64,000 bases of DNA from a virus, in IMG/VR virus record IMGVR_UViG_3300011113_000621, positions 35,754 to 99,753 of that record; one strand, written 5' to 3'. Of the stretch, positions 35,648-42,541 are shown one piece after another. Each line of letters starts with the position of its first letter. Positions within the stretch are counted from its first letter, which is position 1. Both the position numbers and the translations under genes were made by a program. The notes beneath the pieces were generated by a model that saw nothing but the letters and a program-made list of their open reading frames with translations, was not told the origin of the DNA and searched no databases.

Positions 35648-35916
35648 AAAGTAAACAAGCCAGCCCGAAGGCTGGCCTGTTTACGGACTAGCAGATTTTC
35701 AACTCGGAATTACGGTACCGCGCCTGATTCCAGTTTGCGCACCCGTGTCGATGTTGCTACGGAGTTTTTACCGAGGCTAGCTTTGCTATTACCGAGGCTG
35801 AGATACTTATATCTGCTTCGTTTCCTAGACCGCATAAACGTCAGCTTTTCGGGAGTAGTGTCCCCACGGGATACCCTTACGCTCCAAGGTCTAGTAAGTC
35901 CTCTATATTTAGTTGT
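35648..35916 (-). ncRNA. Candidate structured non-coding RNA (about 270 nt)
   Basis: Own promoter motif (35918-35933) and C(UUCG)G terminator (35651-35684); no RBS-led ORF; nested stems GGACT/AGTCC, CTAGACC/GGTCTAG, AGCAGAT/ATCTGCT. Confidence 0.6.
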
Positions 35917-38884: not shown

Positions 38885-39011
38885 TGTCGTTACGTCCTTT
38901 GTGTTTGTTCTTGCGGGTATACTTTCTTTTGTTCCTTACGGGTAGGGAAGCGGAGGAACGACGAAGTTCGAGTAGCCTTCTAAGCTGCTCTGCAGTTTTG
39001 CTTAGCTTCAT
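38874..39011 (-). CDS. Small basic protein
   Basis: MKLSKTAEQLRRLLELRRSSASLPVRNKRKYTRKNKHK; AAGGAGG RBS. Confidence 0.65.
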   Translation of the reverse strand: MKLSKTAEQLRRLLELRRSSASLPVRNKRKYTRKNKHKGRNDNEN

Positions 39012-39022
39012 CGTTCCTCCTT

Positions 39023-39048
39023 TGTTGCTCTTTGACGGAAGGGCAACA
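39023..39048 (-). promoter_or_regulatory. Hairpin after VWA gene; loop antisense to that gene's leader
   Basis: Minus strand TGTTGCCC-TTCCGTCAAA-GAGCAACA; plus-strand tgacggaagg (39033-39042) is identical to the VWA leader (reverse complement of 40856-40865). Confidence 0.6.
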
Positions 39049-39051
39049 TCT

Positions 39052-40848
39052 TTAAGCAGCGTTCTTGCTGCCAATCTTTGTAAGTGCGTTTGCCGCAGCA
39101 GTACCAATTCTGATTGCCGCGTCTGCAGGATCCATGACGTCGGAGAGTAGAACTGTGTTCGTGCCTCGTGTAAGTTCCATTGCATCATGTAGATACGGAC
39201 TCCTACAGAATGGTAACCACAGAACTGCAACGCCTTTGTCATCGCATTCCTTAAGCCAATATTTAGCGCGTTCAGTCTCAACGGAAGTGTAGCGTGCGTC
39301 ACTTACTACTACGAGCAAGCGTGCACCATTTCCATAGAGCAAGTTTAAAGAACCATCAAGTGCCTTAAACGCCTTATCGAACTTCTCAGTTGAATCAGGC
39401 GCAGTGTACACATTGATCTGATCAAGATGTTGCCCTGGCTTTAGAGTAGGAAACACGTCCTGCCCAAAGTAAACCATTGCCGCACGAGCTTGAACTCGAC
39501 GTGCTGCCTCTGACATTGCCCAGGCAGTGACTGCCATAGGGTTCATGGCACTGCCCATTGAACCTGAGATATCAACCATGACACCAATACTTAGTGTTGG
39601 GTCATCAGTGTGCTTGCGCACAGTGCGACGCCATGGATTGGCTACCTGCATTGAACCTTGAGCTTTATACGCAGCATTTTGTACAATGGCACGAGTGCGT
39701 AAACGTCCAGGTGGAAGTATGGACTGAATCTCGTGTTCATCACGCTCACGATACTTTGCTTTCTCAAGCATCTGTGCAATCTTGACTGCGGCAGCTCTTT
39801 CGTTCGCCTCAGGTTTACGAATCTTCTCAAGACGAGAGTTGCTGCCATTAGTGTTGCCTGCCTCAGAAGTATTCTTGAATATCTCTTCTGCGATCTTTTT
39901 GTGCTCACGATCTTGGCGGGCAGCCTTTGAGCGAACTTCTACCTCTTGCTTCCACTCCTCAGATTGCTGTTGGTCCTGAGCATCATCTGCCACAGCGATG
40001 GCAATCATGTCAATCGCATCTTCGATTTCCTTGATGATGTCGCTAATCACGGCTTGGATGATCTGCATATCTGTTGGCTTATCAAGTTCTTCGCCACGCT
40101 CGTTTGCAAGGTCACGTAGAATCTTATCCCACTCACGAGCAAGATTGTATAGAGGCAGAGGGTTAAGCGCATTTTCAATACCTTGGAAACGACGCCATAC
40201 ACTTTGCAACTTTTCAAATGTATCCGCACCTAGAAAGTCAATGACAACTGTGTTGATGCCAACGACATCATCTGCGTCAAGTGAACCTGCGTCAACGCGG
40301 GCACTCAATAGGGCAGCAATTGTTGCGATTGATCTGATGTTATCTGCCTTCTCGATATTCTCATTTATGTCGTGAAGTACAAGGTCAAGTGCACAGGAGC
40401 GAAGAAAGATCCTGTTCATTGGAAAGTTAGTGACGCCAAGGCGCTCAATGCGAGTTTCCTCAAGAGACATGAAGGCATTAAACTCACTAGGAGTCAATTC
40501 CTTACTTGCCATTGACAAGTCCATCTTTGAGTAGCGAGCGTGTAGTGCCTCATGAAAGATGGCACCTGCTGCCTTTGGCCAGTTAAATAGTGAATCGCGA
40601 TCTAAAAGATCACCAATGCTTGAAGGGGAAACTCCCTTACCGAATGATAAGTCTACATTGACCTCAACCTCAGATAGGGCTGGGTTAAAGCATGCAGGGG
40701 TTGGACCTCCTGCGCCTGGTCCTACGTAGGCAACGATGTCTGAGCGTCCTGCCCAGGTGTTTACCAAGGAGCCAATCTGAGCTCCGACCGGCAGCCATTC
40801 GGCTGGGGTCTGTTCCGCGCGGGTCGCGGATACCTTTATATGTCCCAT
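39052..40848 (-). CDS. VWA-domain protein with N-terminal HExxH (CobT/MoxR-partner-like)
   Basis: FHEALHA...LEETRIE; MIDAS VDISGSM; VVVSD. Confidence 0.85.
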   Translation of the reverse strand: MGHIKVSATRAEQTPAEWLPVGAQIGSLVNTWAGRSDIVAYVGPGAGGPTPACFNPALSEVEVNVDLSFGKGVSPSSIGDLLDRDSLFNWPKAAGAIFHEALHARYSKMDLSMASKELTPSEFNAFMSLEETRIERLGVTNFPMNRIFLRSCALDLVLHDINENIEKADNIRSIATIAALLSARVDAGSLDADDVVGINTVVIDFLGADTFEKLQSVWRRFQGIENALNPLPLYNLAREWDKILRDLANERGEELDKPTDMQIIQAVISDIIKEIEDAIDMIAIAVADDAQDQQQSEEWKQEVEVRSKAARQDREHKKIAEEIFKNTSEAGNTNGSNSRLEKIRKPEANERAAAVKIAQMLEKAKYRERDEHEIQSILPPGRLRTRAIVQNAAYKAQGSMQVANPWRRTVRKHTDDPTLSIGVMVDISGSMGSAMNPMAVTAWAMSEAARRVQARAAMVYFGQDVFPTLKPGQHLDQINVYTAPDSTEKFDKAFKALDGSLNLLYGNGARLLVVVSDARYTSVETERAKYWLKECDDKGVAVLWLPFCRSPYLHDAMELTRGTNTVLLSDVMDPADAAIRIGTAAANALTKIGSKNAA

Positions 40849-40880
40849 AGTTTGTCCTTCCGTCAGTAGGTACTATTATA

Positions 40881-41423
40881 TCAGGTTTTCTGGGACTTTA
40901 GAACCCTTCTTTTTGCCGCGAGAGACATTTTCTTTCTAGTCTCTTCTGAGAAAGTTCTTCCCTTTTGCGACTCAGATATTCTTTTCTTAGTCTCTAAAGA
41001 GTGCTTTCTTCCAACCCACACCTGCCGTAGGTTTTCTAAGTGCTCTGCAGTAAACTGTTTACCAGTGTGAGAAGCACTTAGCTTACTTCTATACTTTGCA
41101 GATCTAACTACGCCTACTGAGCCTTCGCCTCCATCTGTCATATTTGTTAGATCATACCCCTCTAACTTAAATTTTTTAATGTAGTAAACTTCTCTTGTGC
41201 CAGACTCTTCCCAAGACAGATTATTTTCTAAAACTGTAATAACTATGTTTGACCCGATGGAACGTACTTGCCGTATCCAGTTATACACATGGTAAGGCTT
41301 ATCTTTTTTAGCATTCCAAAGATGATCCTTTAAGCGTTTAATCGACTCTTCATGCTTCGATCTTCCTACATACCTGATAACCTCAGGTGAATCACTAGAA
41401 GATAGAGTATAGACGATAGCCAC
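40881..41423 (-). mobile_element. Free-standing GIY-YIG homing endonuclease with NUMOD3 repeats
   Basis: IVYTL...RYVGRS...R...H, E..YI, LTNMTDGGEG, then HSLETKKRISESQKG and FSEETRKKMS; lower GC than flanks; leaderless GTG 6 nt after TATAAT. Confidence 0.88.
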
Positions 41424-41444: not shown

Positions 41445-41545
41445 AATTATGGTGAGAAGAGCAGGACACCCATGACCTGCTCTTCTCCACGCGCCCAGGG
41501 GATTAGTCTGGGTCTATCCGAGCAACGACGAGCTCGGAAGGTTTA
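41445..41545 (-). promoter_or_regulatory. Three-hairpin 3' element/terminator after the AAA+ gene with anti-leader loops
   Basis: TCCGAGC-TCGTCGTT-GCTCGGA; CCCAG-ACTAATCCC-CTGGG; GAGAAGAGCAGG-TCATGGGTGT-CCTGCTCTTCTC. Confidence 0.7.
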
Positions 41546-42541
41546 TTAGATTTTGGCCGGACGGCATTCCTCGCCGTAGACTCTGGTAAAGACGTCTGCG
41601 ACTACTGGCCTGTCTAACTCAGGTGCAGCGGCAATTATGTTCGCGATTGCGAACTTAGTGCCGAAGGTTTTAGAGATATCGCGGAACGCGAGTAGCTCAC
41701 GCATTTGTGGTGCCCAACCGCATTCACCAGATTGTTGGCGACGTGATAGGTTTTGAGCAACTACAACTATCTGTTGTGGCGCTCCAAGCTTTTTAGCAAG
41801 CATGAAGTCAGTTGACATCTCAACTTGAAGTACGAAGCGAGATAGTAAAGCTTCTGAAAGTCTTACTCCAGGAGCGTTTGGATTTGTAGCAGCGATGACA
41901 TAGAAGCCTTCCTTGGCTTTGATGGTACCGCGCTCTGGATTGGCAGTGATAGTTAACTCATTAGTTCCATCCATGAGTGAATAGACACCTGAGAGAACCT
42001 TTGGATCGATGAGACCAATCTCATCAATGAACAGTGGGCGACCTTCCTCGGCAGCTTTTACAAGTGGACCATCTTCCCAGGTGAAACCACCTGAAGGAGT
42101 TTGGACGTATCCACCAATGAAGTCTGCAAGTTCAGCGTCACCTGTACCAAGTACAGAGATCACATTTGGAAATGCTGCCTGCACAAGCGCAGTCTTACCA
42201 CAACCAGGAGCACCATAGAGCAAGATGAATTGCATCTCTTGATGCGCCTTACGTAGAACTTGCACGTCATCGTGCTCGCCCCACTTGCGGGCATGGTACT
42301 TCTCGCCATTAGGGCGCATGTATGTCTCGTCACCGACGAGTGCATCTGCTGACACTACAGGGACCACCTTCTTGACTGTTGCACGAACGGCAACCTTACC
42401 CTGAGGTGTAACCATTGATTTAAGTTCAGAGGACACATCTTCATTGAGATGCTGACCTGCTGCCTTTAAGAATAGATCGCTAAGTTTAGGTGACGCACCT
42501 GGCGCCATTGAATCTAACTTATCTAATACTACTGTTGACAT
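41546..42541 (-). CDS. MoxR-family AAA+ ATPase (CbbQ/NirQ/NorQ/CobS-like)
   Basis: Walker A GAPGCGKT, WEDGPL, Walker B LFIDE, AATNP, SEALLSRF. Confidence 0.92.
   Translation of the reverse strand: MSTVVLDKLDSMAPGASPKLSDLFLKAAGQHLNEDVSSELKSMVTPQGKVAVRATVKKVVPVVSADALVGDETYMRPNGEKYHARKWGEHDDVQVLRKAHQEMQFILLYGAPGCGKTALVQAAFPNVISVLGTGDAELADFIGGYVQTPSGGFTWEDGPLVKAAEEGRPLFIDEIGLIDPKVLSGVYSLMDGTNELTITANPERGTIKAKEGFYVIAATNPNAPGVRLSEALLSRFVLQVEMSTDFMLAKKLGAPQQIVVVAQNLSRRQQSGECGWAPQMRELLAFRDISKTFGTKFAIANIIAAAPELDRPVVADVFTRVYGEECRPAKI

Follow-up and report, generated by a model that had tools for sequence, protein, structure and literature searches.

Natural long-range pairings within a bacterial mRNA that control translation are very few, examples being those of icaR and hbs. 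In icaR of Staphylococcus aureus, an anti-Shine-Dalgarno (anti-SD) sequence past the stop codon, the UCCCC motif of a 390-nt 3′ untranslated region (UTR), pairs with the Shine-Dalgarno (SD) sequence of the same message, blocks formation of the initiation complex and creates a substrate for RNase III (Ruiz de los Mozos et al. 2013, PMC3868564). In hbs of Bacillus subtilis, an interaction between the 5′ and 3′ UTRs protects the message from cleavage by RNase Y (Braun et al. 2017, PMC5737220). The icaR motif is not conserved even in S. epidermidis, nor is the hbs interaction among close relatives (PMC7821165), and because neither is conserved beyond a species, both lack evolutionary proof. Here we analyze a stem-loop located 3′ of the gene for a VWA protein in a 64,000-nt stretch of viral DNA (hereafter the window; positions 35,754 to 99,753 of IMG/VR record IMGVR_UViG_3300011113_000621). 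Its loop complements the leader of the same gene, and the adjacent gene for a MoxR-class ATPase shows the same principle.

Two further bacterial systems are related. In B. subtilis, pyrimidine-rich anti-SD-like 8-mers located hundreds of nucleotides downstream pair with the site of ribosome binding (RBS) in vivo and reduce both translation and stability; natural genes are depleted of such sequences, and the number of natural long-range cases on record is small (Gill et al. 2025 preprint, PMC12697547). Those 8-mers are synthetic insertions, whereas the phage case is natural, positively maintained and 1.8 kb away from its target. In Vibrio cholerae, the RNAs OppZ and CarZ stem from operon 3′ ends and pair with the translation start of their own transcript (Hoyos et al. 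2020, as cited in PMC7821165). According to that review, they act in trans after processing by RNase E, with Rho-dependent termination.

Phage gene control likewise includes a far-downstream RNA element and a long-range helix that hides an RBS. In sib retroregulation of lambda int, the far-downstream element is an RNase III site and is not known to pair with the leader. In MS2-type RNA phages, the Min Jou interaction is a long-range helix that hides the RBS within the genomic RNA and is opened when an upstream gene is translated. A phage precedent for 5′-3′ leader pairing across a whole gene was not found in the literature searched.

The element described here resembles icaR in that a downstream anti-SD sequence is complementary to the SD region of the same mRNA. 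It differs from icaR in that the anti-leader comprises 8-14 nt and is exposed in the apical loop of a hairpin starting a few to ~35 nt past the stop codon, that it would pair as far as the 5′-terminal nucleotides and is present on both genes of a pair, and that covariation maintains it among phages with proteins less than 50% identical. From hbs it differs in the proposed role, as the hbs interaction guards against RNase Y rather than hiding the SD sequence. What this locus adds is an interaction spanning a 1.8-kb gene, with compensatory changes through more than 15 sequence types in more than 100 phage genomes, and repeated on the partner gene.

Leader and loop in the window and in related phages

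All genes of the MoxR-VWA region lie on the minus strand (Table 1). The extended -10 promoter of the VWA unit, CCTGATATAAT, is shared with ~13 other window genes located at 27-43 kb. These genes carry CGACGAAAGG behind the identical promoter, whereas the VWA gene carries TGACGGAAGG, in agreement with the preliminary description, in which the VWA leader was said to deviate from the consensus. Nine bases separate the promoter from TGACGGAAGG, which thus starts 9 nt after the -10 hexamer and lies ~2-3 nt from the predicted transcript start; ACAAACU and then AUG follow directly. Downstream of the gene, 3 nt separate the stop codon from the hairpin, and the first ten bases enclosed by its stem, CCUUCCGUCA, are the exact reverse complement of TGACGGAAGG (10/10), just as had been noted earlier. 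Also the statement that this complement lies mostly in the loop holds, since 7 of the 10 nt are unpaired in the minimum-free-energy fold, the remaining 3 being part of a weak inner CUU/AAG helix. Generic leaders fit the loop at only 8 of 10 positions, and the 10-mer and its complement each occur once in the window and likewise once in the whole 99,753-base record. The window therefore contains an anti-SD sequence downstream of the stop codon and on the sense strand of the same gene, as is characteristic of icaR-type pairing. A consensus scan predicted no terminator inside the VWA gene.

Taken by itself, the match in the window is not beyond chance. When the 35 nt 5′ of each of 92 crudely called genes were compared with the 100 nt past its stop codon, the VWA gene ranked first (10 nt) and the AAA+ gene second (9 nt) in complementarity between own leader and own tail. 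However, 0.7% of the mismatched leader/tail pairs reached at least 10 nt, which amounts to ~0.6 such matches expected per window. The chance expectation, proposed earlier as a check, thus gives no significance to the window alone, and the decision rests on the relatives, which do supply it.

Three collection scans yielded at least 207 related VWA loci, many of them representing the same contig twice: 124 came from two viral-contig scans and 81 from environmental and genome contigs, to which DSL-LC01 and the window are added. Non-identical in leader plus tail are 120 of them. DSL-LC01, a metagenome-assembled GenBank phage from Dishui Lake (PMC10611076), shows the same design as the other loci, its loop complementing its own leader; it was the one match, and a weak one, in a megablast search against GenBank phages. 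The species-genome collection contained two loci only, and the sole close relative there, a contig binned with a Limnocylindrus metagenome-assembled genome, is without a VWA leader/loop match. The carriers are a large family of uncultured lake phages.

Complementarity between own leader and own tail recurs in these orthologous loci, as the preliminary description demanded; its length is 8 nt or more in 95 of the 120 and 10 nt or more in 52. In almost every lineage the NorD-like VWA gene has a stem-loop on its 3′ side, the apical loop of which is complementary to the SD leader of that gene, with sequences that vary by lineage. More than 15 different leader/loop pairs occur in phages whose VWA proteins are down to ~46% identical. 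The main clade combines the leader TGACGGAAGG(AUA) with the loop (UAU)CCUUCCGUCA over 8-13 nt, and locus L153 combines CGACGGAAGG with CCUUCCGUCG. Other loci carry, in the order leader/loop, GACGAAAGGAC/GUCCUUUCGUC, CAAAGGACAAACA/UGUUUGUCCUUUG, UAAAGGACAA/UUGUCCUUUA, GAAAGGAACG/CGUUCCUUUC, GGACAACAACAG/CUGUUGUUGUCC, GGAGAAGA/UCUUCUCC, GGAGACAC/GUGUCUCC, GGAAACGA/UCGUUUCC, GAAAAGGGG/CCCCUUUUC or CAAAGGGG/CCCCUUUG; this list is not exhaustive. Two-segment pairings that keep the antiparallel order are present in L096, L025, L022 and L208, as exemplified by L096, where the leader segments GUUUGGACACG...UGGAAGGA match UCCUUCCA...CGUGUCCAAAC in the loop. In L201 and L127 (DSL-LC01) there are two alternative leader targets for the loop GUUUACUUGUCCUUUA, namely GGACAAGUAAAC upstream and AAAGGACAA at the SD sequence.

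In most loci 3-8 nt separate the end of the paired segment from the start codon, and the SD core is included in the segment, so that the RBS is covered as had been suggested. Counted from the -10 hexamer, an extended TGnTATAAT in the main clade, the distance to the beginning of the segment is 7-35 nt (mode 9-13); the segment thus lies within a few nucleotides of the predicted 5′ end and never upstream of it. Mimicry of the 16S rRNA tail was discarded as the cause of the loop because the complementarity continues past the SD core by 4-8 nt on either side and is not the same in all clades.

The covariation of leader and loop, which had been called apparent, is borne out by several kinds of control. 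For a type-level test, the 120 loci were conservatively lumped into 23 sequence types, failures included. The mean own match was 8.3 nt versus 5.9 nt between types, and none of 200,000 permutations reached the observed sum (p<=5e-6). In a tree-aware test, 35 sister pairs without a common branch in the protein tree were compared, of which 17 favoured the own combination, 3 the swapped one and 15 neither (p=0.0013, one-sided sign test); the same test on a smaller first set gave 11:2:10 (p=0.011). Own-versus-swapped RNAduplex energies for whole tails were better in 14 and worse in 7 cases (p=0.09), a test that is noisy because leaders also pair with the stem arms. Within-locus controls, which hold phylogeny fixed, comprised the 35-nt stretch lying farther upstream, two windows within coding sequence and a match in the same sense; they gave 5.3-6.3 nt as compared with 8.8 nt for the leader window, which was better in 100-110 of 119 loci. 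Compensation is visible at individual positions, as in TGACGG../..CCGUCA versus CGACGG../..CCGUCG (L153) or GGAC/GUCC versus GGAU/AUCC. In 37 sequences anchored on AAGGA/UCCUU, the position 5′ of the anchor shows G:C 23 times and A:U 11 times, and the position 3′ of it shows C:G 16 times, U:A 5 times and A:U once. Comparative sequence analysis thus identifies leader/loop complementarity as a selected, covarying feature of the VWA loci across these phages.

The hairpin itself is conserved as a structure. An alignment of related VWA loci of the kind proposed in the preliminary description, analyzed with RNAalifold for 25 main-clade sequences plus the window, yielded a stem of 12 pairs, 11 of which show double compensatory changes, while the loop core CUUCCGUCA is invariant in all 26. 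Stems of the relatives are long (11-19 bp) and GC-rich; the copy in the window has decayed to 6 bp with its loop kept. A U-run after the hairpin is absent from the window and from most relatives despite their long stems. The window hairpin, whose stem is followed by AAAGGAGG, does not qualify as an intrinsic (Rho-independent) terminator, which requires a GC-rich stem followed by a U-tract: its stem measures only 6 bp, no U-tract follows, and the consensus scan called no terminator on the minus strand at 39023-39048. That scan does not recognise the extended -10 promoters of this phage either. Rfam 15 covariance models gave no relevant match at E<=1 between 38700 and 43300.

The feature is limited to the VWA gene and the adjacent MoxR gene. 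Own matches of at least 8 nt were present for 52 of 70 VWA genes as compared with 35 of 596 other co-directional genes of the same loci. Among the latter, 17 reached 9 nt or more, and 13 of these were MoxR genes. That such loops might be a general property of this phage's terminators was dismissed, since the other intergenic hairpins of the window carry plain small loops. For MoxR, the own match is 7.2 nt versus 5.7 nt for cross matches (permutation p ~1e-5), which confirms that the partner gene shows the same principle. Two modes are found. In distant clades an anti-SD sequence without a hairpin of its own directly follows the MoxR stop codon (e.g. GACAUAGGG/CCCUAUGUC and CACAGGGAG/CUCCCUGUG). 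In the other mode, a hairpin presents a loop of the GGGUG or UUCGUCGUU type that pairs with boxes of the CACCC type or with AACGACGAA in the leader, and in relatives the GGGUG-type loops covary with the CACCC-type boxes of MoxR leaders. We conclude that the observation is real and that its core interpretation, leader/loop covariation on both partner genes, is supported by the comparative evidence.

A model for the pairing and its alternatives

Complementarity, covariation, apical placement within a covarying stem, overlap with the SD sequence and restriction to two genes were computed. Based on these, we consider it somewhat probable that the 3′ stem-loop is an icaR-like long-range 5′-3′ pairing element which hides the SD sequence and the 5′ end of the finished mRNA. 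We infer that the pairing would be intramolecular, that its effect would be repression, and that it would be timed as follows. During transcription of the 1.8-kb gene the leader would be free and ribosomes could load. Once the 3′ loop is made, both ends of the message would pair in a duplex of 8-14 bp that hides the SD sequence and the 5′ end, whereby further initiation would be limited and mRNA decay probably changed. The adjacent MoxR gene would use the same principle. Predicted energies are compatible with this model: the leaders are otherwise unstructured (opening cost 0.2-4.2 kcal/mol), and the leader-loop duplexes are predicted at -11 to -21 kcal/mol, leaving a net of about -5 to -17 kcal/mol after opening costs.

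Some observations weigh against this model or leave room for others. The VWA hairpin is absent from the clade of L020, L021, L023 and L027, and L125 and L089 have no clear leader/loop match. Under a stricter pairing rule confined to apical regions, sister pairs were better, worse and tied in the ratio 8:2:3 (p=0.055), several failures being hairpin-picking errors. Single-column tree tests, concordant throughout, comprise just 3-4 changes per column and are therefore not significant on their own. In the window and in many relatives neither a promoter nor a U-tract follows the hairpin; since the next gene thus follows without a promoter, the element may be intercistronic rather than a true 3′ end. 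In L018, L072, L073 and L078 a promoter of the next gene is located directly 3′ of the hairpin. In one metatranscriptome, 65% of the sampled words were present, and contigs span MoxR-VWA, in a form without the endonuclease gene described below, and run through the 3′ hairpin; such contigs show presence in RNA libraries only and cannot give ends, strand or level. Finally, the effect could be stabilisation, as in hbs, rather than repression.

A bolder version of the model is possible, if doubtful. VWA and MoxR messages might be 'self-closing', i.e., translatable only while they are transcribed and switched off, or switched in their mode of decay, when the 3′ loop clamps the 5′ end and the SD sequence. 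If so, output per transcript would be set by gene length and not by mRNA lifetime, the two partners would be produced in a ratio set by the separate clamps of their messages, and a general, covariation-maintained design principle for protein dosing in bacteria and phages would emerge.

Partial specificity of the loop leads to the first competing explanation. The hairpin might be processed or terminated into a stable 3′-derived small RNA that pairs in trans with the leaders of VWA and, in phages with a shared leader type, of other early genes and serves as a feedback or global brake on early translation, similar to OppZ/CarZ. Antisense and small RNAs typically have such a layout, a stable stem that exposes its loop, and 3′UTR-derived small RNAs that regulate their own operon are documented (PMC7821165). 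The loop can be viewed as a seed complementary to start regions: leaders of the TGACGGAAGG or AAAGGACAAG type also head other early genes in many relatives, and the paired segment, unique within the fetched locus in 39 of 55 cases, recurs at other leaders in the remaining 16. Likewise, MoxR loops of the window complement the generic leader half AACGACGA, which is common to ~15 genes. In 39 of 70 loci no other leader fits the loop as well as the own one; in 22 the best other leader ties with it, and in 9 the own leader loses. Because leaders are shared, such partial specificity fits a trans-acting or multi-target role equally well. The earlier term 'gene-specific' is therefore supported in part only. 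Pairing in cis is nevertheless favoured because the element stays behind both VWA and MoxR in every clade, even with unrelated sequences, because the hairpinless MoxR anti-SD of distant clades is unlike a small-RNA module, and because the window loop follows the variant leader of its own gene, with two mismatches to the generic one. Taken together, we regard a trans-acting RNA as unlikely, albeit to be reckoned with.

It is distinctly less plausible that the same 5′-3′ pairing serves mainly to protect the message from 5′-end-dependent RNases and 3′ exonucleases. Such a role would suit the start of the paired segment a few nucleotides from the predicted 5′ end and the long, GC-rich stems, and has a precedent in hbs with its shielding against RNase Y (PMC5737220; PMC7821165). 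Yet the duplex always includes the SD core, which end protection does not need and which places the duplex in competition with ribosome binding, and distal anti-SD-like sequences lowered both mRNA level and translation in B. subtilis (PMC12697547).

Very improbable is a function of the exact inverted repeat that flanks the gene at the level of DNA, either in gene inversion by a recombinase or as a site at both gene ends for one protein. Of the two copies, the downstream one is invariably found within an apical loop whose stem covaries, and the upstream one invariably shares bases with the SD sequence. Length and sequence of the repeat are also free to vary, a behaviour more in keeping with base pairing than with a protein site. 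In oriented searches, MoxR precedes VWA on the same strand in every locus with both genes; as no inverted copy was found, an invertible segment was discarded. Coincidence amplified by purine-rich leaders and pyrimidine-rich loops, to which the ~0.6 matches expected from the window would point, has a negligible probability in view of the permutation, tree-aware and within-locus controls and the gene-specific enrichment.

If 5′-3′ pairing hides the SD sequence as proposed, these loci would offer an unusually clean natural test bed for communication between the ends of prokaryotic messages and for the recent claim on distal anti-SD sequences. Leader and loop would constitute a compact, portable part for tuning expression, and the NorQ/NorD-like pair would be flagged as genes whose dose phages appear to control tightly.

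The MoxR-VWA region and its proteins

Table 1. Positions of features in the MoxR-VWA region of the window
Feature	Position	Strand	Remarks
First leader of operon, AACGACGA	43044-43037		complemented by the 8-nt loop of MoxR hairpin 1
First leader of operon and start codon, ACACCCAUG	43030-43022		complemented by the loop of the terminator-like MoxR hairpin
MoxR leader, CAACGACGA	42565-42557		complemented by UCGUCGUUG, i.e. hairpin 1 loop plus one flanking stem base
MoxR-class AAA+ ATPase gene	41546..42541	-	Pfam AAA_5, E 2.6e-17; directly upstream of VWA in all loci
Conserved UCCCCUUGGCG	41546-41550		after MoxR stop; main clade
Extra segment after MoxR stop	41503-41545	-	~43 nt; TAAT at both borders
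MoxR hairpin 1, CCGAGC / loop UCGUCGUU / GCUCGG	41518..41537	-	after MoxR stop
Terminator-like MoxR hairpin, loop UCAUGGGUGU	41454..41487	-	12-bp stem; predicted fold
GIY-YIG/NUMOD3 homing-endonuclease gene	40881-41423	-	between MoxR and VWA; stop codon TGA 40883-40881
Extended -10 promoter of VWA unit, CCTGATATAAT	40885-40875	-	motif shared with ~13 other window genes
VWA 5′ leader segment, TGACGGAAGG	40865-40856	-	partner of 3′ loop; conserved or covarying in relatives
VWA SD sequence, GGAAGGA	40861-40855	-	GGAAGG, most of the SD, inside paired leader segment
VWA gene	40848..39052	-	598 aa; ATG at 40848, stop TAA 39054-39052
HEALH (HExxH), residues 99-103	40540-40554	-	N-terminal helical domain of VWA protein
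VWA 3′ stem-loop, UGUUGC / apical CCUUCCGUCAAAGA / GCAACA	39048-39023	-	6-bp stem, 14-nt apical region; begins 4 nt past stop
Anti-leader, CCUUCCGUCA	39042-39033	-	first ten enclosed bases; 10-19 nt past stop
15-bp helix, GGAGGAACGAUGAAG with CUUCGUCGUUCCUCC	38952-39020	-	perfect pairing
45-codon open reading frame	39011-38874		SD and AUG buried in the 15-bp helix

The MoxR gene of the window is followed by two hairpins, the loops of which match the MoxR leader and the first leader of the operon (Table 1). Loops of the hairpin 1 type after MoxR are also present in L018, L020/21/27 and L125. The clade of L020, L021, L023 and L027 has a tandem of two hairpins behind MoxR, each with a UUCGUCGUU-type loop; the tandem loops are identical (UUUCUUCGUCGUUU) in L020, L021 and L023, and the second loop of L027 is slightly different. 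The sequence UCCCCUUGGCG, conserved in the main clade after the MoxR stop codon, is not complementary to the MoxR leader.

A homing-endonuclease gene separates MoxR from VWA in the window. It is absent from the 99%-identical contig L001, where the gap measures 93 nt instead of 697, and an RNA-library contig joins 41545 to 40885 and thus also lacks it. L001, which has an identical MoxR protein, also lacks a segment of ~43 nt that the window carries after the MoxR stop codon; this segment contains the UCGUCGUU hairpin and was probably acquired along with the endonuclease gene, whose stop codon lies inside the VWA promoter motif. In L030 (1809-1883), and also in L015, L017 and L040, a tRNA-Met (CAT) gene is located between the MoxR terminator hairpin and the VWA promoter.

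The 598-aa protein is of the VWA type as identified by its predicted fold alone; searches against Pfam, PHROGs, NCBIfam and PDB sequences gave no profile or sequence match. In the AlphaFold (AF2) model, with a pLDDT (predicted local distance difference test) of 82, a C-terminal VWA/MIDAS domain of the NorD type follows an N-terminal helical domain, and the best PDB match is the VWA domain of NorD in the NorQ-NorD complex (E 1.8e-6). Together with the AAA_5 match of its neighbor and the adjacency of the genes in all loci, this bears out the designation as a MoxR/VWA pair, adjacency and a VWA/MIDAS domain being the marks of MoxR AAA+/VWA partner pairs such as NorQ-NorD, CbbQ-CbbO and CobS-CobT. 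H99, E100 and H103 are invariant in 13 diverse orthologs, as is DISGS (DxSxS motif). The N-terminal domain, which has no family match and contains the HEALH sequence, may be a metallopeptidase-like module fused to VWA.

Just beyond the VWA stem-loop, a perfect 15-bp helix buries the SD sequence and AUG of a 45-codon open reading frame, which may be a structured RNA rather than a gene. The 3′ arm of this helix also resembles an anti-leader (complement AACGACGAAG) and recurs in L130 and L169.

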